This document shows, one piece after another, positions 2,049 through 21,909 of a stretch of 32,000 nt of DNA. Under the pieces are notes generated by a model, which was not told the DNA's origin, ran no database searches, and saw only the letters and a list, made by a program, of their open reading frames with translations. The stretch spans positions 27,967 through 59,966 of IMG/VR virus record IMGVR_UViG_3300017971_000311. One strand, given 5' to 3'. Position numbers and translations under genes: made by a program. Position 1 is the stretch's first letter; each line of letters starts with the position of its first letter. Source of the stretch: a virus.

Positions 2049-2300
2049 ATGGTATTGTCAAGTAAGATGTATGAATCTTTGGCAGGTCGTACTGTTCGCC
2101 TTTTGCGCGCGTATACCGTCGAAGAAGATTGCCTACCTTCAGCTCCATTTAAATTCAGCATTTGTCTTCCCAAAGGATTACGGGGCACCGTGATCAAAGT
2201 GGTCATGATTCCAGAATCTAAGGTATTCGTGGACTTCTCTATCGGCGAGACAAAAATTCAATGCTGGATCCCCAAATTACTCACCGAACTTGTAAAATAG
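2049..2300 (+). CDS. Hypothetical protein
   Basis: 83-aa ORF with no recognisable motif. Confidence 0.5.
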   Translation: MVLSSKMYESLAGRTVRLLRAYTVEEDCLPSAPFKFSICLPKGLRGTVIKVVMIPESKVFVDFSIGETKIQCWIPKLLTELVK

Positions 2301-2334
2301 CTGGTAGTAGTTCTAGCTCACAGGAGAACCAGCT

Positions 2335-2646
2335 ATGCCAGAGGACAGAAAATCAGACTTAGTAGAAATCGGGGCACTGTGGATTGGGGAAACGAAGACG
2401 GGGGAGATGTATCTCAACGGGAAAATGGGTAGAGCCAAACTGCTCGTGTTCCGCAACAAGTTCAAGGACACAGATAGGCATCCAGACTACAAGGTCTACG
2501 TCACCAATCCTGAGCGTCAAGATCAAGATCGAGCGCAGCCGCCAGCAGACAAGTTCCAGCAGTCTATGACATCCCCGCAGCAAGATAAGAAGTCCGATAG
2601 CCACGTTCCACCAGACGAGGATCCCTACGACGAGATTCCATTCTGA
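2335..2646 (+). CDS. DUF736-like protein with SSB-type acidic C-terminal tip
   Basis: GGAGAA RBS. The N-terminal LLVFRNKFKDTDRHPDYKVYV matches the DUF736 hallmark (vf.N..K....PDYrv). The C-terminus DEDPYDEIPF resembles the SSB tail DDDIPF. Confidence 0.65.
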   Translation: MPEDRKSDLVEIGALWIGETKTGEMYLNGKMGRAKLLVFRNKFKDTDRHPDYKVYVTNPERQDQDRAQPPADKFQQSMTSPQQDKKSDSHVPPDEDPYDEIPF

Positions 2647-2658
2647 GGTGCAATCATC

Positions 2659-3573
2659 ATGCTCGATCGTATTAGAAAAGCCTTTCGCGAGAACGTCTAC
2701 ACGCATCTTATCAACGACGATCGTCTACCCAACAAAAAGAAGGGGTCGGTGTGGCGCCACGGACGTTTGTACATTCGCCCTCGCAAAGAAAAGAGGCTGA
2801 AGCTCACGAACAGATCTCCAGAGGCACATGTCAGCTGGGCGCTTCTTGGGGCTGCTCATCATTTGTGCTTCCACATTCGCCTGGAGTCTCCAGGTGGAGA
2901 AGATGACATCAGCATTTCCGGTGGCATCCCGTACCTCTTCTACTTAGGAGGAAGTGTAGAGGGGCTAGTACCGCAGGAGGTCAAGCAGTGGATCGGTCTC
3001 TACAATCCAGGCGCCAAGACAGGGGACGTCTATATTGACAGGTCCATTGGCTGGTCGATTCACGACGGCACTGCTTGGATTTCCATCTGGGAAAACGATA
3101 ACGGGTGGAGCAGTAGAGACCCGAAGTGGTGGAAGTTCAACTTTTCCATCAACCCTCTAGATCTTCTGGGCCGCAAGAAGTACACTAGCGAGGTCGTCGA
3201 GGAGAAGACGGTGGCCATCCCGATGCCTGAGGGAAGCTACCCAGCGAAGATTAAGTTGTGTGCAGATACATGGGCACGTCCGCGCTGGCCTCGTTGGCCG
3301 TTCTCGGAAACCATTTTGCGCATGCACGCTGATATGGTCAAACCCATCCCCACTCCCGGTAAAGGCGAAAATTCTTGGGATTGTGGTGACGATGCGGTGT
3401 GCGGTTTAACAGCTCCCGCGCGCACAATGGAAGAGGCGGTAGGTAAGCTAGTAGCTACTGCTTTGCAGGACAGGCAGCGTTACGGTGGAAGCCACGAGTT
3501 CACACCGCGGGATCCACCTCCTGATGAAGCCACAGAAAATGCGCCGGTAGAGATGAAGAACGCCGATGCCTAA
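2659..3573 (+). CDS. Hypothetical protein (304 aa)
   Basis: Long ORF with a GAGGTG RBS. Trp-rich. No family recognised. Confidence 0.7.
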   Translation: MLDRIRKAFRENVYTHLINDDRLPNKKKGSVWRHGRLYIRPRKEKRLKLTNRSPEAHVSWALLGAAHHLCFHIRLESPGGEDDISISGGIPYLFYLGGSVEGLVPQEVKQWIGLYNPGAKTGDVYIDRSIGWSIHDGTAWISIWENDNGWSSRDPKWWKFNFSINPLDLLGRKKYTSEVVEEKTVAIPMPEGSYPAKIKLCADTWARPRWPRWPFSETILRMHADMVKPIPTPGKGENSWDCGDDAVCGLTAPARTMEEAVGKLVATALQDRQRYGGSHEFTPRDPPPDEATENAPVEMKNADA

Positions 3574-3577
3574 GACG

Positions 3578-3664
3578 ATGCGCGATTTATTACTGGGCTT
3601 CACTGTAGGCGCGGTGATCTTCTCTGTTCTAGCGTTGACTCTAGGATACTGTTACCATGGCTGA
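3578..3664 (+). CDS. Possible 28-aa membrane peptide
   Basis: Product MRDLLLGFTVGAVIFSVLALTLGYCYHG. The stop overlaps the next ATG (ATGGCTGA). It is short, so weakly supported. Confidence 0.3.
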   Translation: MRDLLLGFTVGAVIFSVLALTLGYCYHG

Positions 3665-3839
3665 AGAAAACGGACATGATTGGATCACCAACGGGCTCGA
3701 ACAGGCAGTCCCATTCACAGGCCCACAGCCAGATGATGAACCACGGGTAGAGCATGTTCCAGAGGACCTGGCTAGCGTAGCGCGTGATGCGGGTATGCTC
3801 ATTAATCCAGCAATTGCTAGGCACGGGAAGCTAGCTTGA
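3657..3839 (+). CDS. Hypothetical protein
   Basis: 60-aa acidic ORF. Confidence 0.45.
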   Translation: MAEENGHDWITNGLEQAVPFTGPQPDDEPRVEHVPEDLASVARDAGMLINPAIARHGKLA

Positions 3840-4276
3840 CCGTGGGGATAGGGTCTAAACGAAAACGCCTTAGGCGCTTAAAGGCAAAGTACGGTGGTCC
3901 AGGGCTGCTACCAGCAGGAGAAACGAAAATGAAATTGAAGTATGGTGGTTCAGGTGTACCTCCTACAGGACCGCATCCCAATCCTCCTCGTCCGAAACCG
4001 CGCCCGGATTCTCACAAAGAAGACGCTTGCAAGTGCTCCAACGACTGCGGTGCTACAATAGCTGCCCTGAAGATGCTTGCGCAGTCCCTGGAACGAGAAA
4101 ATGAATTTCTGCGCGACGAGCTCAAGCGGCTGCGCGAAGGAGCCCCAGAAAATTGGGTCCACCTAGGCCAAGGTGGGGAGTACGTCCGCAATTTGGGGGA
4201 TCCTTTGTGGGAGCGCGGCGAGTTCGTGTGTGAGTATAAAGAACCAAAAGAACCAGGAGAATCCGATGACAAGTGA
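3836..4276 (+). CDS. Hypothetical protein with KxKYGGxG tandem repeat and coiled coil
   Basis: TTG start overlaps the upstream stop. An alternative ATG at 3929 has an AGGAG RBS. The repeat is LKAKYGGPGLLPAG / MKLKYGGSGVPPTG. A heptad-like LERENEFLRDELKRLREG segment follows. Confidence 0.55.
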   Translation: MTVGIGSKRKRLRRLKAKYGGPGLLPAGETKMKLKYGGSGVPPTGPHPNPPRPKPRPDSHKEDACKCSNDCGATIAALKMLAQSLERENEFLRDELKRLREGAPENWVHLGQGGEYVRNLGDPLWERGEFVCEYKEPKEPGESDDK

Positions 4277-6410: not shown

Positions 6411-6476
6411 CTTCTTGTAGCTCAGCTGGTAGAGCATGGGACTCCGAGGTCGTGGGTTCGAGTCCCACCTGGCCCG
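6411..6476 (+). pseudogene. Truncated tRNA-like element (canonical D and T arms, no acceptor pairing, 3-bp mini anticodon hairpin)
   Basis: TA-GCTC-AGCTGGTA-GAGC and GTGGG-TTCGAGT-CCCAC are canonical. Only 15 nt lie between them where about 22 are expected. The 5' strand CTTCTTG cannot pair with CTGGCCC. Confidence 0.4.
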
Positions 6477-16516: not shown

Positions 16517-16897
16517 ATGAGCGACTTTTTGATTTGCCGCAAGTGCGGCAGCCTCAAGCGGGCGCATACCCATATTGTCTTTCACGACTTTGGCTTCCAG
16601 CTAGGGGAGCCTGGCGTTCATTATTGCCCCACCTGCGATCCTGAGCCGGCGCCCCCGCAAGTGCATCCTATTACCGATCCCGAGGAAGTGTTTGGGAGCA
16701 ATATCGCCGGAATGATTTTTGCCTCCCTGAAAGAAAAAGAAGCCAGGATTAAAGCGCTCGAAGACGCTGTGCGGGAGATGCTCAAGTATGAATGCCCGCG
16801 CTGCGATCTGGACGTGCAGGCAGCAGTAGACGTTTACGGCGTGCAGTTGACCATCACCGGAGTGTTCGATGACAACGAAGAAAAAGAGCCGCGTTGA
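16517..16897 (+). CDS. Hypothetical protein with CxxC pairs
   Basis: 126-aa ORF with CRKCG, CPTC and CPRC motifs. Confidence 0.6.
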   Translation: MSDFLICRKCGSLKRAHTHIVFHDFGFQLGEPGVHYCPTCDPEPAPPQVHPITDPEEVFGSNIAGMIFASLKEKEARIKALEDAVREMLKYECPRCDLDVQAAVDVYGVQLTITGVFDDNEEKEPR

Positions 16898-19661
16898 CCT
16901 CCTGAAGGAGATGTTCAAGGAGTATGGGCTCGATACCGAGTTCTTTTCGCAGTATGCCACGTACGTTGGGACGCAGCTAGATGAGGTGGATCGGGATCTA
17001 TGGCAAATATGCCAAAGCTACAGCTTGGATGTAGAATCGGATTTTGAGCGCGCGAAGTCCGATCCAAAAATCCAGGCCTTGGGGGCTGCCATGGCTGCCA
17101 CCACAAAAGAGTTCCTGGGAATAGGAGCTCCACGCAGCCCAGAAGAAGCATTTGCGGCTCGTAATGTAGGGGTGCCCAATACTACACTCCGTCAAGCAGA
17201 AACCGCAGTCATACTAGGTGCAACAGAGGTTACTCCGATGAGCGCAACAAAGTCCACAAAGAAACCGCAGGGTGCGGGAAGCAACCAAGAGGAAGTAATC
17301 GATCCGGCAAGGGAGCGGGCTATCACTTTATCCAATTGCTTGGAATTTCTGCAGTCAGGTGCAGCAGAGGACTTGCTTGTAGACGCGCGCATTCGCGTTT
17401 CGGAGCATCGACATGCCCAATCCAAGTACCGGCACGATCTGAGTGTGAACAATACTGTCCTGATGCCAGTTGCTATCTTGCGGTTGCTTGCGCACTTTGA
17501 CAGGTCCTCTGAAGGCTGGGCGCAACTGTGGCCTGCGTTGAAGAGGTGGCGCGTAGCTACCATTTTCCGAGATGCGCATCGAAAGGATCTACCAGAAAAT
17601 ATTCGTGTACCGGCGCAGCTGGCTGTCGATGTGTTAACGGTTATCTGCCCGCTTGCAAACGAGCGCAAGATCTCCGACCAGCTGATAAAAGAGAAGAAGA
17701 GCACCGCTTATCATACGTCTGCGATAGATCCTTCACAACGCTCCAACATGCTGGACACGGAGCCGCTATTCGTTCAGTACGGAGAATTCCCTCAGGTGTT
17801 CATGCAGAAGGGCGGTACCGTTACTTGTGACGTGTCCAAGCCAAACATTATAGTTGACGTGCGGGCAGAAACCACCTCCCTTGTTGGGCATCTTCTGCCG
17901 TCAGAAGGATTCACTGCGCCGTCCGACGCGACGATGACCGTAGTAAACTTTCCGTATGAAAACACGGACAAGCTGGTTTGTGTACTTACTCATGGGGATC
18001 TGTACCTGGTTAAGCGAAAGTATATTCCAGAGAGCAAGTATTTAGATGTTGGGCCGCTCTTTAAAGACTGGGGAAACCTGTGCATGGCTTTTGCGCTCCC
18101 AGATGGTACGGTCACCTGTGATTTCGACAAGGGCGGGAAGGCCCTGGGGCGCGTGTGGTCGCCGAACATGTCTGTTCCTGCAGGGGAGCAGGTAGTCGAG
18201 GTTCAGTATGAAGACACCGGGAAGCTGATACGAATTTGCATGCGTGGCATGGCAATGGCACTAAAGATGCCGGAGAAACCACAATACATCAGGCCAGGCG
18301 TGTACAGTGCTTCTGTTGTCGATGGCAAGTATCCTTTGCTTAATTCAGAGACGGGCCGTTTTTCGTCTGAGAAGACTAATGAAGCCAACAAGCCAAGAGG
18401 CGCAGGAGACTACAAGCTCACCACGAACCGGTATGTGCGTCCTCAGCTTAATACTAATAAGAGGTACGTAGCGTCCAAGGCATCCAAACCCCATTCGTCT
18501 GAGACTGGCCGGGTAGCGTCGGATAAGCCTAATATGAAAGAGGTTGGCAGTAAGAATGGCTACCACCGCAAAACGATATCCGCAAACTACAAAGACACAG
18601 AGCTCCGTGTGATTCTGCCATTCCTCTTCACTACGGAATTCGAGCGGATGGCAGAGGATAGTCTCTATGGGTCTGCAGAGGCTAGGTGGCTCACAGAGGA
18701 CCTCGGTATTCCCTACACCAAGCTTAATAATTGCGTGGACGCTTCGCAGGTACGCGAGCTTGTTTGTGAGAGACTGAGGCGCCTACCATGTACGCACACG
18801 CTGTTTCAAATTCCAGGATATCTACGACCAATTTTGCACCTGCTTCATGCAGGGGGCGCCACGTTCGAGAAGGACGCGCACTGGACGCATGTCCATCAAC
18901 GAGAAGAATTTTCTCTTACTATCAACGATGCCCCTTTGGAATTCCATCGGATTGGGTTCTGTCGAGATGGTCGTACTCTACGCCTGCAGATTCCTCGGCA
19001 TACCAATTCGGTAGACTTTAGACCAGATCAAAACGTCCAGGACCTGAAGCGGTTCACGCTACGGTTACGCTGCCTTTCTGCATGGCATGAGATTATTTTT
19101 GCCGACTGCTTCGTTAAGCAATACGAAGAGGCCGGAGAGATCATTCATATTTGGTATACAGGTGGACGAAGGAGCTACGGTTGCCTGCCCAACCCGCATG
19201 GGGAGACGATGGATATGTTGGGCATCTCAGGTCCGTACCCACCTCTAATCGACAACACAAAGCTTCTTGCCCCAGTTGAGGACTACCTTATTTCATGGAC
19301 CAAGGGAAAGCGGCGCCGCCAGGTAGCGGTGACTTGCATGGATCAGCTCACGGTCGAAGTGAACGGCGTGCCGATACAACCAGACTGCATCGAGTTTGAG
19401 GCATTCCCAGAAACAACTCCGCATCCGCGCGTCCATTTATTGATGAGCGGGAAGGATTGGGATGCGCATAAGGATTCGTACATCCCCTCGTTCATCAATG
19501 AGGAATTTCCAATCAAGATCACCCTTAAGGATAAGGGGGTGGTGCTCAGGTCGGATAGGTGCGTTGGCAAAATGAAAAACGCGAGCCAGGATAAGAAGTT
19601 CCGGCTTCGCGTGACGATGCTTAATTTGGAGGCGGTTGGCCGTGAGCCAAAAGAAGATTAA
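16869..19661 (+). CDS. Large 930-aa protein with degenerate family-A polymerase-like motifs
   Basis: It is the longest ORF in the window. Residues about 490-750 carry SETGRFSSEK / SETGRVASDKPNMKEV (compare TGRLSS.PNLQNIP), ANYKDTELRVI (compare DYSQIELRV), SLYGSAEARWLTEDLGIP (compare YGMSAFGLARQLNIP) and IIFADCFV (compare QVHDELV). A G(G/D)TVTCD domain is tandemly repeated at residues about 315-475. Confidence 0.8.
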   Translation: MTTKKKSRVDLLKEMFKEYGLDTEFFSQYATYVGTQLDEVDRDLWQICQSYSLDVESDFERAKSDPKIQALGAAMAATTKEFLGIGAPRSPEEAFAARNVGVPNTTLRQAETAVILGATEVTPMSATKSTKKPQGAGSNQEEVIDPARERAITLSNCLEFLQSGAAEDLLVDARIRVSEHRHAQSKYRHDLSVNNTVLMPVAILRLLAHFDRSSEGWAQLWPALKRWRVATIFRDAHRKDLPENIRVPAQLAVDVLTVICPLANERKISDQLIKEKKSTAYHTSAIDPSQRSNMLDTEPLFVQYGEFPQVFMQKGGTVTCDVSKPNIIVDVRAETTSLVGHLLPSEGFTAPSDATMTVVNFPYENTDKLVCVLTHGDLYLVKRKYIPESKYLDVGPLFKDWGNLCMAFALPDGTVTCDFDKGGKALGRVWSPNMSVPAGEQVVEVQYEDTGKLIRICMRGMAMALKMPEKPQYIRPGVYSASVVDGKYPLLNSETGRFSSEKTNEANKPRGAGDYKLTTNRYVRPQLNTNKRYVASKASKPHSSETGRVASDKPNMKEVGSKNGYHRKTISANYKDTELRVILPFLFTTEFERMAEDSLYGSAEARWLTEDLGIPYTKLNNCVDASQVRELVCERLRRLPCTHTLFQIPGYLRPILHLLHAGGATFEKDAHWTHVHQREEFSLTINDAPLEFHRIGFCRDGRTLRLQIPRHTNSVDFRPDQNVQDLKRFTLRLRCLSAWHEIIFADCFVKQYEEAGEIIHIWYTGGRRSYGCLPNPHGETMDMLGISGPYPPLIDNTKLLAPVEDYLISWTKGKRRRQVAVTCMDQLTVEVNGVPIQPDCIEFEAFPETTPHPRVHLLMSGKDWDAHKDSYIPSFINEEFPIKITLKDKGVVLRSDRCVGKMKNASQDKKFRLRVTMLNLEAVGREPKED

Positions 19662-20985: not shown

Positions 20986-21350
20986 GCCGCAAGATGCAGA
21001 CACCAATCCCTATCGAATCTTATGCGCGTGAGGGGCGTAAACTACTAGCGCAGCCAGGAGGAGCTCGTCTGGCCTTGGAGTTCCTGCTTGATTGTCTGGA
21101 GCGCCACAAGGATGAGCTGCGAGAACTGAGAACCGCACCTGCTCCGAAGACGCCAGCCTTGGCTGATTTGGGCCTTAGATTCGGTCAGATGAAAGAGGTG
21201 GTGGGAGAGCAGGTGGCAATTATGGAGCGGGCTCTAATTGTGGAGGCTCTTTATCGTACCGATGGGAATGCGACTAAGGCAGCAGAGCTTCTTGGGATAA
21301 GTCGTAAGGGTATCCAGCTGAAGATGCAGTCTTTGGGGATCAAGCGGTAG
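20982..21350 (+). CDS. Fis-type (HTH_8) DNA-binding protein
   Basis: The C-terminal MERALIVEALYRTDGNATKAAELLGISRKGIQLKMQSLGI matches the Fis/NtrC-type HTH pattern. Confidence 0.75.
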   Translation: MSRKMQTPIPIESYAREGRKLLAQPGGARLALEFLLDCLERHKDELRELRTAPAPKTPALADLGLRFGQMKEVVGEQVAIMERALIVEALYRTDGNATKAAELLGISRKGIQLKMQSLGIKR

Positions 21351-21352
21351 AA

Positions 21353-21444
21353 AGGGCACGACGGGATTTGAACCCGCGTTGTCGGGGGCCTTAATCCTCG
21401 ACAACCATCCAAAGCGCGCCCAAGCGGCCCGAGTGGTTGTACCC
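21353..21444 (-). ncRNA. Non-canonical tRNA-like RNA (extended helix capped by an ATTAAGG loop)
   Basis: Minus strand has T arm GCGGG-TTCAAAT-CCCGT and 3' strand CGTGCCC. It pairs either with GGGTACA (6/7) 92 nt upstream or with GGGCGCG (7/7) 69 nt upstream. A helix of about 10 bp, GTTGTCG(A)GG/CC(C)CGACAAC, carries a U33-UAA-G37-like loop. No normal D arm. Confidence 0.4.
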
Positions 21445-21510
21445 TCACACCCGGACCTAGTATTGCCAGTATATTCGAATCACCGATGGCATTTAAGCTG
21501 CTGCGTAAGG

Positions 21511-21589
21511 CATTAAGTCTTGCGTGCTGTCTTTACACTACAAACCCATAAAGAGAGGGTTTGGCGGGAATCAAACCCGCACTTCAAGA
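21511..21589 (-). ncRNA. Candidate circularly permuted tRNA gene (3' half, 8-nt linker, 5' half)
   Basis: Minus strand reads TCTTG-AAGT-GCGGG-TTTGATT-CCCGC-CAAACCC-T, then CTCTTTAT, then GGGTTTG-TA-GTGT-AAAGACA-GCAC-G-CAAGA-CTTAATG. The acceptor pairs 7/7 and the anticodon stem 5/5 only in the permuted order. Confidence 0.45.
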
Positions 21590-21678
21590 TAGTTTGTCGG
21601 CAGCGTTCGAGCCGGTGAAACTGGCGAATGCTTAGTTTTGGAGAATAGCTTGACGTTCAGTTCGGGCATCTATAAAGC

Positions 21679-21840
21679 CTCGACAGCCGTCTGCATCAGA
21701 CACGACGACCGCGTTTACCAGATTTCGCCACCCGTACGCAAAGTAATGGGGCTGGGAGGCGCATCGCGTCTCCACTGTTTAAGCGCATCGCGTCTAAACG
21801 CCCCGATTGTACGGGGAAGGGTTCGAACCTCCAAGTCGAG
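21679..21840 (-). ncRNA. Candidate circularly permuted class-II-like tRNA gene (3' part, 70-nt spacer, 5' part)
   Basis: Minus strand reads CTCGAC-TT-GGAGG-TTCGAAC-CCTTC-CCCGTAC-A, then a 70-nt spacer, then GTACGGG-TG-GCG-AAATCTGGTAAA-CGC. A bulged 7-bp hairpin with loop TCTGATG follows, then CT-GTCGAG. The acceptor pairs 7/7 and the outer helix GTCGAG/CTCGAC pairs 6/6. Confidence 0.35.
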
Positions 21841-21909
21841 TTTGGTGTGCTTCATAATCATCGCCCTTGAGATTCCTGCTTAAGTTAAGCTTGTCTCCAT
21901 CCTAAGCCG

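Follow-up and report, generated by a model that had tools for sequence, protein, structure and literature searches.

The window, the whole 32,000-nt stretch of viral DNA analysed here, carries on its minus strand a gene for a DUF7873 protein followed by two structured RNAs, which we call RNA A and RNA B, in this order (Table 1). Two small ORFs separate the gene from RNA A, so that the gene-to-RNA spacing is above the usual; the one of 77 amino acids shares 40 to 48% identity with ORFs of 73 to 75 amino acids right after the DUF7873 gene in L062 and L063. RNA B, with its conserved CTTAAAYG internal loop, scores 38.2 bits with model R1, and comparison with tRNA isotypes gave no assignment for it. 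Beyond RNA B lies a hairpin with a GGGUAC loop, which corresponds to the terminator hairpin of bacterial copies and is followed by a U run there and in L001. It is succeeded by element C, whose acceptor, T arm and middle arm show covariation across 7 loci and which gives a weak match to tmRNA ends. The window as a whole is rich in tRNA genes.

Table 1. Features of the DUF7873 locus in the window (coordinates count from the first letter of the window).
Feature	Position	Strand	Remarks
DUF7873 gene, 244 aa	22339-23073	minus	Pfam PF25283, E = 8e-97
Small ORF, 77 aa, between DUF7873 gene and RNA A	21910-22143	minus	conserved only in the window's phage clade
RNA A, full extent	21630-21907	minus	5'/3' rod and tRNA-Leu-like domain; unit of the first-pass annotation is its core
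RNA A outer helix, 5' strand CTCGAC	21840-21835	minus	variable-arm position; pairs with 21679-21684, 6/6
RNA A TT after outer helix	21834-21833	minus	
RNA A T arm GGAGG-TTCGAAC-CCTTC	21832-21816	minus	T-stem covariation in 34 homologues
RNA A acceptor 3' strand CCCGTAC	21815-21809	minus	pairs with 21731-21737, 7/7; 7/7 pairs covary family-wide
RNA A discriminator-position A	21808	minus	
RNA A 70-nt insert in acceptor-closing loop	21807-21738	minus	13-nt repeat twice; lineage-specific
RNA A acceptor 5' strand GTACGGG	21737-21731	minus	MFE fold and covariation
RNA A TG (U8-G9)	21730-21729	minus	precedes D arm
RNA A D arm GCG-AAATCTGGTAAA-CGC	21728-21711	minus	tRNA-Leu type; 3-bp stem, 12-nt loop with GG
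RNA A capped hairpin, anticodon-arm position	21710-21685	minus	10 bp, one bulge; no conserved anticodon arm
RNA A outer helix, 3' strand GTCGAG	21684-21679	minus	pairs with CTCGAC
RNA A 3'-rod motif CGTCAAGCTATTCTCCAAAACTAAGCA	21629-21655	minus	family consensus approximately CTCAGATTATYGCTCYAGAYTCAGCA
RNA B	21480-21618	minus	capped tRNA mimic, YrlA-like stems; first reported as 21511-21589
Hairpin with GGGUAC loop	21426-21457	minus	covariation in 7 phage loci
Element C, third tRNA-like element, normal order	21353-21422	minus	specific to the window's phage clade

The core of RNA A had been described in the first-pass annotation as a permuted tRNA-like gene of 162 nt. Each sequence segment named there is found base for base at its place on the minus strand, and the two long-range helices, the acceptor stem (GTACGGG/CCCGTAC, 7/7) and the outer helix (GTCGAG/CTCGAC, 6/6), agree with the MFE fold; an unconstrained MFE fold of 21670-21850 recovers all five helices. 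The limits of the unit, by contrast, have to be redrawn, as the flanks form a conserved rod that reaches about 21907 on one side and about 21630 on the other. In the full-length MFE structure this rod pairs GCUUAG with CUAAGC, GGAGA with UCUCC, UUAUGAAGC with GCUUUAUAG, and CUCGAC with GUCGAG, and the motif on its 3' side is based on alignments of 24 and 19 relatives together with bacterial copies. The z-scores of the folding energies are modest overall, with -2.39 for the 285-nt full RNA A element and -0.64 for 21670-21850, a value that is not unusual alone. The ensemble also contains a competitor, in which the acceptor 3' strand pairs locally with the beginning of the spacer (CCCCG/CGGGG).

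At the anticodon-arm position, the bulged hairpin reported earlier is present and non-canonical, but the MFE fold gives it 10 bp, one bulge and a 5-nt CUGAU loop rather than 7 bp and a 7-nt loop. The 70-nt insert in the acceptor-closing loop does contain the direct repeat and the GGGGC/GCCCC closure attributed to it: the 13-nt sequence GCGCATCGCGTCT occurs exactly at 21759-21771 and 21783-21795, with 0 such occurrences expected by chance, and in the MFE fold the closure surrounds two hairpins. Comparison shows that this spacer with its repeat is not shared by the family. The closest relative, with a protein 85% identical, has a 7-nt loop (AATTTAC) instead, and the loop inserts of other lineages, 20 to 76 nt long, are unrelated to that of the window.

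A composite pattern (T arm 5/5 with a TTYRANN loop, downstream 7/7 acceptor complement, U8 and D arm) matches the 32-kb window exactly twice, once at 21832 and once at 21580, on the minus strand in each case, whereas 200 dinucleotide-preserving shuffles yielded a mean of 0.005 matches and none with two. Chance similarity or decaying tRNA gene fragments, which the first reading had already thought less likely, would find some favour in the tRNA-rich window and the unremarkable z-score of the core. This explanation is refuted by the shuffles and by compensatory conservation in phages and at least seven bacterial phyla, and its probability is close to nil. The two matching loci had been regarded as independent of each other; their common topology stands, but they are RNAs A and B of one module tied to DUF7873.

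The order of this module is DUF7873 gene, RNA A, RNA B. At least 50 of the 53 metagenomic phage loci from IMG/VR carry it 3' of DUF7873, with RNA A approximately 70 to 150 nt and RNA B approximately 220 to 350 nt from the DUF7873 stop. Both RNAs are present in isolate phages of Gordonia, Arthrobacter, Pseudanabaena, Klebsiella and Ralstonia, and the scan found a single copy in those of Vibrio and Rhizobium, so that the isolate phages carrying module RNAs represent seven host genera. Among bacteria, the module was detected in 77 of 80 genomes from at least seven phyla, and also on two long bacterial contigs. A reverse search by the RNA motif alone located DUF7873 107 to 643 nt upstream in 24 of 26 permuted elements, and DUF7873 is the only conserved flanking gene across 54 phage and 82 bacterial loci. 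The DUF7873 family itself comprises more than 2,600 protein clusters at 50% identity, in genomes of more than 597 bacterial species and in many phages. A DNA similarity search of 21300-22000 against GenBank phages gave no match, nor did the exact T arm and acceptor string in IMG/VR. Rfam at gathering score returned only ordinary tRNAs and one tmRNA from the window, 16 phage loci and 20 bacterial loci, and our literature search found no paper on these RNAs or on a DUF7873-RNA module.

Phage copies of the module sit in tRNA gene arrays. Bacterial copies with scanned neighbours are mostly found among ordinary genes; in one bacterial genome the module lies directly after hsdM-hsdS-AAA_21-RloB-hsdR, a defence-island setting. 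The rod loops of the module RNAs include CTCAGATTATYGCTCYAG and CTTAAAYG. In L088 a WD40 gene is located between the DUF7873 gene and the RNA, and in Klebsiella phage FBKp24 a promoter is annotated at this position.

The RNAs lie on the same strand right after the ORF, bacterial copies then continue into the terminator hairpin, and in the window no convincing promoter was found between gene and RNA. This arrangement would suit a cis-acting 3' element of the DUF7873 mRNA, serving 3'-end processing or message stabilisation in the way that mascRNA does for MALAT1. Two elaborate, conserved RNAs with long rods, however, far exceed the needs of a processing signal. Moreover, the two ORFs of the window and the WD40 gene of L088 intervene, and FBKp24 has its annotated promoter before the RNA. 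We consider a cis-acting role very unlikely.

The fold is conserved across the family with extensive covariation. In the RNA A core (34 sequences), 99.6% of cells are paired as opposed to 38 to 50% in slid controls, a percentage that is circular where sets were picked by a filter requiring pairing. The double-change counts are not affected by this circularity: double changes occur at 14 of 15 pairs, amounting to 132 cells versus 36.6 in shuffles, and none of 500 shuffles reached the observed number. Long-range complementarity in relatives had been proposed as a check, and both the acceptor stem and the outer helix are indeed kept there with covariation, the latter appearing as CTCGGC/GTCGAG, CCGGC/GTCGG, TGGTT/GACCA, TCACC/GGTGA, GTACC/GGTAC, GTTTC/GAAAC and others. 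Within the variable-arm class, the outer helix is perfect (5/5) in 23 of 37 elements with a Leu-type D arm, compared with 15% for mismatched strands; these numbers cover this class only, as differing stem and variable-loop lengths made the automatic classifier overlook most elements with the rod at the anticodon stem. The long 5'/3' rod seen in the window copy is also predicted for most relatives folded singly. In RNA B, RNAalifold on 18 sequences shows compensatory changes at 27 of 31 pairs, and the tertiary pair 19-56 is G19/C56 in 62 copies and A19/U56 in 12, with no instance of G19/U56. The permuted order, in which T arm and acceptor 3' strand precede acceptor 5' strand and D arm, is both real and conserved.

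A covariance model of the RNA A core, built from the 34 homologues, assigns 50 to 81 bits to other loci, even those with inserts of 62 to 74 nt, on a scale on which junctions of tandem ordinary tRNA genes reach up to approximately 50 bits. Since the model is nonspecific in tRNA arrays, the position relative to DUF7873 and the acceptor complementarity were used as well. The window copy gives a match that the 70-nt insert and the alternative pairing split into 20.3 and 18.9 bits (local search, each E ~1e-5); by eye it is collinear with its closest relative, L057. With this insert, the two small ORFs before RNA A and the alternative pairing, the window copy is atypical and could be a drifting one.

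The tRNA that RNA A resembles is tRNA-Leu. Its D-arm region is nearest to tRNA-Leu in 58.5 of 64 distinct sequences, and the alternative form of the RNA A D arm recurs unchanged in ordinary tRNA-Leu genes of phages; overall, the D arm is identical or near-identical to that of bacterial and phage tRNA-Leu. Of the long Leu/Ser type first suggested for it, the tRNA-Leu assignment is confirmed. The equivalent of A73 is likewise common to both: an A occupies the discriminator position in all 38 bacterial and in 32 of 39 phage RNA A copies (70/77), while RNA B has U or G. The tRNA-type positions U8, A14, A15/U48 and G18G19 are conserved. The helix placed earlier at the variable-arm position does open there in the window's clade, with linkers of 1 nt before and 2 nt after it, as in E. 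coli tRNA-Leu. Unlike tRNA-Leu, RNA A has a closed acceptor end and a stub or rod instead of an anticodon arm, and the window copy has no CCA end.

These last features bear on whether the locus is a genuine circularly permuted tRNA gene that gives rise to a contiguous, decoding class II tRNA, as was first proposed. Such genes are known from Cyanidioschyzon merolae, other algae and some archaea, where they have a normal anticodon arm, undergo circularisation at a bulge-helix-bulge and mature into decoding tRNAs of the ordinary kind. RNA A shares with them the 3' half before the 5' half, the short intervening sequence and the complementary acceptor strands, and it resembles a tRNA in its T arm, D arm and 7/7 acceptor stem. 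However, a conserved anticodon arm (5-bp stem, 7-nt loop, U33) is absent: the hairpin at this position ranges from 8 to 33 nt in relatives, is often capped by a tetraloop, and is replaced in most family members by an open rod with no anticodon loop at all. The ends of RNA A form a long, imperfect, conserved rod and apparently not a bulge-helix-bulge, and neither ARAGORN nor the Rfam tRNA model makes a call. The hosts, moreover, are bacteria and phages, and bacteria are not known to have the splicing endonuclease pathway that permuted tRNAs use. We therefore do not regard the locus as a tRNA gene, a reading we hold to be highly improbable.

The closed end of the acceptor stem shows further regularities. 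The stem has 7 bp and stacks on a 5-bp T stem in every copy counted (the picking filter required 7/7), and the loop opens with a type-specific nucleotide, which is A for RNA A and either U or G for RNA B, followed by C; for each of the two RNAs, 25 of 77 copies extend this to CCA. At its other end the loop finishes with U in 55 of 77 copies of RNA B and in only 9 of 38 bacterial copies of RNA A. In the window's clade the loop, A-AUUUA-C or a close variant, lacks CC and has C at -1, and in several lineages the acceptor stem is prolonged into a long perfect hairpin with no unpaired discriminator. The type-specific N-C start, often N-CCA, fits processing of the loop better than a simple cap, and mature RNA A may not be the closed form.

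Processing of this kind could yield a two-piece tRNA-like molecule, which would team up with DUF7873 as an aminoacyl carrier without a decoding role or as a tmRNA-like entity. RNase P would cut 5' of the acceptor 5' strand, the 3' side would be trimmed to the discriminator or C74 and its CCA completed, and the pieces would be held together by the acceptor stem and the rod. Because LeuRS reads A73, the D arm and the elbow, not the anticodon, the open end could also be leucylated. The constant 7-bp acceptor on a 5-bp T stem, the type-specific loop start and the terminal U of most RNA B loops are consistent with this scheme, as is a gene order equal to that of permuted two-piece tmRNA. A precedent exists in Mycobacterium smegmatis, whose YrlA has a 7-bp acceptor stem: RNase P cleaves this RNA, and CA is added to it in vivo (PMC4201824). 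The loop of the window's clade, the scarcity of a terminal U in bacterial RNA A and the lineages with long perfect hairpins argue against it, and on balance we think the two-piece form unlikely; it would be compatible, as a maturation step, with the explanation we prefer below. That RNAs A and B are both opened by RNase P, CCA-tailed and aminoacylated, to act as rod-borne carriers outside normal decoding (e.g., as tmRNA-like ribosome ligands or aminoacyl donors for DUF7873), appears doubtful.

Pfam returns for the protein only the DUF itself, and PHROGs, PADLOC and NCBIfam gave no matches; sequence and profile searches against the PDB found nothing, and our literature search revealed no paper mentioning DUF7873. 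The AlphaFold2 model (pLDDT 87) has no structural neighbour in the PDB or BFVD according to Foldseek, with a best TM of approximately 0.2 bar one, an uncharacterised phage protein at TM 0.45 (E = 0.026). The protein is not basic (pI 6.1), no recognisable RNA-binding domain was found in it, and no domain fusions occur among the best 150 of 2,629 clusters. A vault link was considered and rejected: the closest relative has an MVP_shoulder/Vault_3 gene beside the module, and the 930-aa ORF of the window is no homologue of it.

We propose, with a probability of approximately 0.6, that RNA A is part of the DUF7873 module and is a non-decoding, tRNA-Leu-shaped RNA with a function in a ribonucleoprotein of the YrlA type. 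RNA A folds as a tRNA-Leu-shaped L with T arm, 7-bp acceptor stem, Leu-type D arm and elbow contacts, in which a loop closes the acceptor stem and one arm, here the variable arm, is drawn into a rod formed from the RNA's own ends. Having no usable anticodon, RNA A does not decode. It most likely works like a YrlA-type Y RNA: a dedicated protein, for which DUF7873 is the most probable candidate, would bind the rod and its conserved internal loops, while the tRNA-Leu mimic would engage a factor that ordinarily reads tRNA-Leu or the elbow and acceptor of tRNAs (for instance LeuRS, RNase P, the CCA-adding enzyme or a modification enzyme). The comparative data establish the fold with its conservation and covariation, the likeness to tRNA-Leu, the tie to DUF7873 and the lack of a linked Ro60 gene; binding by DUF7873 and the action of the complex are inferred. 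Counting against this reading are the pI of the protein, its lack of a recognisable RNA-binding domain and of a structural neighbour, the atypical window copy, the modest z-scores and the loop starts that fit processing.

The same mimicry could serve as a decoy or sponge in phage-host conflict, titrating a host protein that binds tRNA-Leu or the tRNA body (a tRNA-targeting toxin, a defence nuclease or LeuRS) independently of DUF7873. The location of phage modules inside tRNA gene arrays and the bacterial copy behind the hsd-RloB cluster would be in line with such a role. Most scanned bacterial copies, however, lie among ordinary genes, PADLOC gave no matches, the anticodon loop needed by known anticodon nucleases is absent, and the strict DUF7873 linkage and the conserved rod motifs would be left unexplained, which renders the decoy improbable.

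If RNA A does act in a DUF7873 ribonucleoprotein, the module would offer a handle on the purpose of tRNA mimics, YrlA included. RNA A copies the identity set of one tRNA species, tRNA-Leu. The module accounts for unannotated gaps of 400 to 500 nt in many phage genomes and for at least one mis-annotated "suppressor tRNA". It is present in tractable organisms, including Gordonia phage GodonK, Klebsiella phage FBKp24, Ralstonia phage RSL1 and Kitasatospora/Streptomyces strains.

Of the known systems, two-piece tmRNA (RF04321), which acts with SmpB, resembles the module in that the acceptor piece comes first, the tRNA-like domain sits on a long helix and the partner protein gene is commonly adjacent. 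Unlike two-piece tmRNA, the module RNAs have no tag reading frame (there is no room for one) and no pseudoknots, they possess a true D stem, and the acceptor of the window carries A3-U70 instead of G3-U70. The Rfam model tmRNA_permuted reaches 13.6 bits, on the RNA B core only, versus a gathering score of 47, and ARAGORN found no tmRNA.

The likeness to YrlA (RF02553) extends to the whole architecture. YrlA is laid out as stem, V, T, acceptor stem-loop and D (Chen et al. 2014, PMC4201824), and the module RNAs likewise have a 5'/3' stem with internal loops, an optional V hairpin, a T arm, a loop-closed acceptor-like stem and a D arm. In both cases a tandem pair of RNAs lies beside a protein gene, in bacteria as well as phages. 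The Rfam YrlA model scores 21.0 bits on RNA B of the window, over T arm, acceptor hairpin and D arm, has no match in its RNA A, and gives 17 to 37 bits in relatives. It aligns in full length with the RNA B copies of L009 and L130 (29.7 and 36.9 bits), scores that bracket the 32.5 bits of a genuine YrlA, the one adjacent to Ro in phage Bxz1. None of the 16 phage and 20 bacterial loci has YrlA at the gathering score of 69 bits, which is a weak test as the Bxz1 YrlA itself falls short of it. Unlike YrlA, the module is tied to DUF7873 and not to rsr: no TROVE (Ro60/rsr) gene occurs among the scanned ORFs of the window or the flank ORFs, which are unrelated, and Ro-like genes are absent from the records of the module-carrying Klebsiella, Serratia, Arthrobacter, Pseudanabaena, Ralstonia and Rhizobium phages. 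The rod motifs also differ from the Ro-binding GNCGAAN0-1G, which RNA A does not contain; the equivalent internal loop of RNA B, conserved as (G/A)ATCGACCG and reading CTCGAACG in the window, resembles it loosely. RNA A, furthermore, is a specific mimic of tRNA-Leu that may open at the variable arm rather than at the anticodon stem. Closed-acceptor tRNA mimics have so far been known as partners of Ro60, in the form of YrlA; the same design, tied here to a large family of proteins of unknown fold, points to tRNA mimicry as the basis of a second, independent protein-RNA system.

The strings reported for the element at 21679-21840 in the first-pass annotation were all verified at their positions by direct reading of the minus strand, including the 13-nt spacer repeat, which exceeds chance expectation. 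The element is the core of a longer, tRNA-Leu-shaped RNA (RNA A), whose rod runs in the window from GCUUAG at 21907 to CUAAGC at 21630. An unconstrained fold recovers all five annotated helices of the core at unremarkable energy (z = -0.64), so that the window sequence by itself is suggestive but not decisive; a 285-nt fold of the full RNA A reaches z = -2.39. The window yields 18-20 ordinary tRNA calls from ARAGORN and from Rfam at its gathering score, but nothing at RNA A. A second permuted tRNA-like RNA (RNA B) lies at 21480-21618 on the minus strand. Chance is the least probable of the readings considered here: a composite pattern of a perfect T arm, a downstream 7/7 acceptor complement, U8, and a D arm matches twice in the window, at the RNA A locus and at 21511-21589 within RNA B, against a mean of 0.005 matches in 200 dinucleotide-preserving shuffles, none of which had two.

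Parts of the RNA A core as read directly from the window sequence
Feature	Position	Strand	Followed by
Outer helix, 5' strand CTCGAC	21840-21835	-	TT
T arm	21832-21816	-	
Acceptor, 3' strand CCCGTAC	21815-21809	-	A at 21808
70-nt spacer	21807-21738	-	
Acceptor, 5' strand GTACGGG	21737-21731	-	TG
D arm	21728-21711	-	
Hairpin after D arm	21710-21685	-	
Outer helix, 3' strand GTCGAG	21684-21679	-	

The nearest same-strand upstream gene with a family assignment (22339-23073) encodes DUF7873 (PF25283). Homologs occur at 53 IMG/VR loci, and in nearly all of these a simple scan found two tandem elements of the permuted topology directly downstream, with acceptor stems that are wholly unlike in sequence between loci but complementary throughout. 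All-against-all clustering of flanking ORFs left DUF7873 as the sole conserved gene around the phage loci. Among cultured phages, Gordonia GodonK, Arthrobacter Mimi, Pseudanabaena Pam2, Klebsiella FBKp24, and Ralstonia RSL1 carry the RNA pair without annotation; one copy only was detected by the scan in Vibrio D520 and Rhizobium RHph_TM61. Built from 34 sequences, a covariance model for the core of RNA A scores 50-81 bits at the expected site in 44 IMG/VR loci and lower in 6 others. With one genome scanned per species, DUF7873 is found in more than 597 bacterial genomes, and 77 of the 80 bacterial loci kept have one or two model matches just downstream of it; elsewhere in these 77 loci there is no match at E < 0.001, and no neighboring gene besides DUF7873 is conserved in the bacterial loci. 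Carriers belong to Myxococcota, Actinomycetota (including Streptomyces, Kitasatospora, and Actinomadura), Abditibacteriota, Planctomycetota, Acidobacteriota, Chloroflexota, and Armatimonadota. From the RNA side, a search with the RNA A D-arm motif returned 26 permuted elements, 24 of them with DUF7873 107-643 nt upstream.

Individual loci show further features. In Klebsiella phage vB_KpM_FBKp24, the annotation places a promoter between DUF7873 and RNA A, and a "tRNA-Sup-TTA" annotation (L065 3512-3591 = MW394391.1 46041-46120) is probably a mis-call because it overlaps the 5' part of RNA B. On a 3.48-Mb bacterial contig (ctg355664; L069 1-8732), the module comes straight after a type I restriction neighborhood that resembles a defense island (hsdM, hsdS, an AAA_21/AAA_15 ATPase, RloB, and hsdR); a second module copy from the same sample (L070) lies among ordinary genes. 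The window's closest relative, L057, encodes a large major-vault-protein-like protein (MVP_shoulder and weak Vault_3; 2154-3930, minus strand) convergent to the module. A vault-protein link was rejected, the window's 930-aa ORF at 16869-19661 not being homologous to it.

In the 34-sequence alignment, 14 of 15 pairs in the T, acceptor, and D helices show changes on both sides, and double-change cells number 132, compared with 36.6 in column shuffles (observed value reached in 0 of 500); slid controls for the same helices are 38-50% paired. The overall figure of 99.6% paired is partly circular because the scan itself demanded pairing, but the double changes are not, and with them the long-range acceptor complementarity proposed from the window is seen to be kept in relatives. 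RNA B has three extra helices beyond its tRNA-like core, with compensatory changes in 27 of 31 predicted pairs. Its positions 56 (T loop) and 19 (D loop) switch jointly (C56 with GG in 62 copies, U56 with GA in 12, U56 with GG in 0); since 19-56 is the tRNA elbow pair, this supports an L-shaped fold. In RNA A, the two flanks pair into a long, imperfect rod that contains conserved motifs.

The D arm of RNA A combines a 3-bp stem with an 11-12-nt loop and occurs in two forms: GCG...CGC matches canonical tRNA-Leu, and GCC...GGC is identical to the D arm found in short tRNA-Leu genes of phages. ARAGORN typed nine ordinary tRNAs with the same motif, all of them as tRNA-Leu. Short tRNA-Leu genes (74-77 nt) without a long variable arm are present in many IMG/VR phages (L157, L166, L167, L173, L178, L188, L192, L193, and L212), and their D arm, GCCCAANNGGTAGAGGC, is that of RNA A's commoner form. 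U8, A14, A15, U48, and G18G19 are near-invariant. Immediately beyond the acceptor 3' strand, 38 of 38 bacterial and 32 of 39 phage copies have A; the equivalent base in RNA B is U or G.

Which arm is opened varies within the family. Mostly it is the anticodon stem, and the variable region is then a 5-nt loop or a closed hairpin. In the window's class, a closed hairpin follows the D arm, and the rod begins 1 nt on and returns 2 nt short of the T arm, equal in length to the linkers that flank the variable arm in tRNA-Leu. The class includes the loci L057-L059, L062-L064, L001, L004, L008, L026, and L034 and many copies from Myxococcota, Abditibacteriota, and Acidobacteriota. A short helix at the rod base covaries widely and is perfect in 23 of 37 elements with the Leu D arm, versus 15% with mismatched strands. 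Linker lengths and covariation together support placing the open helix at the variable-arm position, as first proposed.

Other parts are specific to lineages. The DUF7873 protein of L057 is 85% identical to that of the window and its RNA A is collinear, with acceptor ACTGGAG/CTCCAGT, a hairpin unlike the window's, and a closing loop of 7 nt. Hence, the 70-nt spacer and its repeat are not a family feature but a private insertion; other lineages have unrelated inserts in this loop. The window insert makes an alternative pairing, CCCCG/CGGGG, which splits the covariance-model match there into 20.3 and 18.9 bits. The anticodon-position hairpin ranges from 8 to 33 nt across relatives, commonly with a GAAA-type tetraloop, which excludes decoding and counts against the original reading as a true permuted tRNA gene. 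Alternatively, RNase P could open the closing loop and the CCA be completed, yielding a two-piece tRNA-like molecule. The strictly 7-bp acceptor stem, the type-specific "discriminator" base of RNAs A and B, closing loops that often begin N-CCA, and the YrlA of M. smegmatis, which is cut by RNase P and receives CA (PMC4201824), are consistent with such processing; the CC is, however, missing in the window's clade, and we consider this route unlikely. A decoy role is less likely still, followed by a cis-acting mRNA element and then the permuted tRNA gene.

The window module has additional neighbors. Downstream of RNA B lie a conserved hairpin whose loop is GGGUAC (21426-21457, minus strand) and a third tRNA-like element, C (21353-21422, minus strand), of normal order. 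Element C has an acceptor stem of 8 bp, a T arm, and a middle arm capped by the conserved loop GGAKUAAGG; the region 21353-21457 shows covariation across seven phage loci. The bacterial counterparts of the GGGUAC-loop hairpin precede a U run and resemble a module terminator. In two Acidobacteriota genomes, a tRNA-like gene comes directly after RNA B (L104 3748-3820 and L138 3630-3699; Rfam tRNA 59.7 and 35.6 bits); the former has GUU in its anticodon loop and a mismatch at the first acceptor pair. A normally ordered third element may therefore recur beyond the window's clade. Between DUF7873 and RNA A are two small, coiled-coil-like ORFs (21910-22143 and 22145-22336, minus strand). The first (77 aa) shares 40-48% identity with the ORF that comes immediately after DUF7873 in two relatives (L062 and L063) and hence is a clade-specific addition; the second (63 aa) has no match among the few ORFs compared. 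Just upstream of DUF7873, at 23175-23348, are the window's sole minus-strand tRNA genes, tRNA-Leu(AAG) and tRNA-Ser(AGA), which with DUF7873 and RNAs A to C form a minus-strand island amid plus-strand genes. The Rfam tRNA model gives both low scores (43.8 and 38.2 bits), and their anticodons begin with A34, which is unusual in bacterial-type tRNAs. On the plus strand, weak Rfam tRNA matches that ARAGORN does not call, at 6417-6469 (32.4 bits, model positions 7-64 only) and 10614-10684 (29.5 bits), may be degraded or unusual genes within tRNA arrays. HNH_3 homing-endonuclease-like genes with HTH domains (10648-11376 and 13174-13785, plus strand) lie among the tRNA genes, as they do in other tRNA-rich phages.

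DUF7873 (~244 aa) is encoded as a stand-alone protein. It has many invariant residues, 2,707 near homologs, 2,629 clusters at 50% identity, and no domain fusions in the top 150 clusters. Its AlphaFold2 model is confident (pLDDT 87) but has no meaningful structural neighbor in the PDB or BFVD, and the sequence libraries searched give no function. Given the observed linkage, fold, and mimicry, we propose, with a probability of about 0.6, that RNA A serves as the RNA component of a ribonucleoprotein with DUF7873, in which the rod would bind the protein and the capped tRNA-Leu mimic would engage tRNA-recognizing machinery; protein binding and activity are the putative parts of this proposal. The rsr-yrlA and smpB-ssrA gene pairs offer a model for such a pairing of protein gene and RNA.

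No family describing RNAs A and B was found in Rfam release 15, and the literature searched, whose coverage is incomplete and leaves an earlier description possible, contained no paper on them or on DUF7873. We regard RNA A as a tRNA mimic of the YrlA type, set apart by a new proposed partner protein, its specific tRNA-Leu identity, and an opening at the variable arm. YrlA itself is Y RNA-like, mimics tRNA, and is a partner of Ro60; it is ordered as terminal stem, optional V hairpin, T arm, acceptor-like stem-loop, and D arm (Chen et al. 2014, PMC4201824), which is the "permuted" order of the window RNAs. At relaxed thresholds, the 21511-21589 locus matches the Rfam YrlA model over three parts: T arm, closed acceptor hairpin, and D arm. 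The model aligns over the full length with RNA B copies from other loci at 29.7-36.9 bits, under the gathering score of 69, and the genuine YrlA adjoining the Ro gene of phage Bxz1 likewise reaches just 32.5 bits. The window has no Ro60/TROVE gene. Ro-like proteins are on 356-369 phage records, chiefly of Mycobacterium and Streptomyces phages; the records of phages of Klebsiella, Serratia, Arthrobacter, Pseudanabaena, Ralstonia, and Rhizobium, where DUF7873 and the RNAs are present, have none. We therefore regard RNAs A and B as lying outside the Ro60-linked YrlA family as defined, while having YrlA's design and possibly its ancestry.
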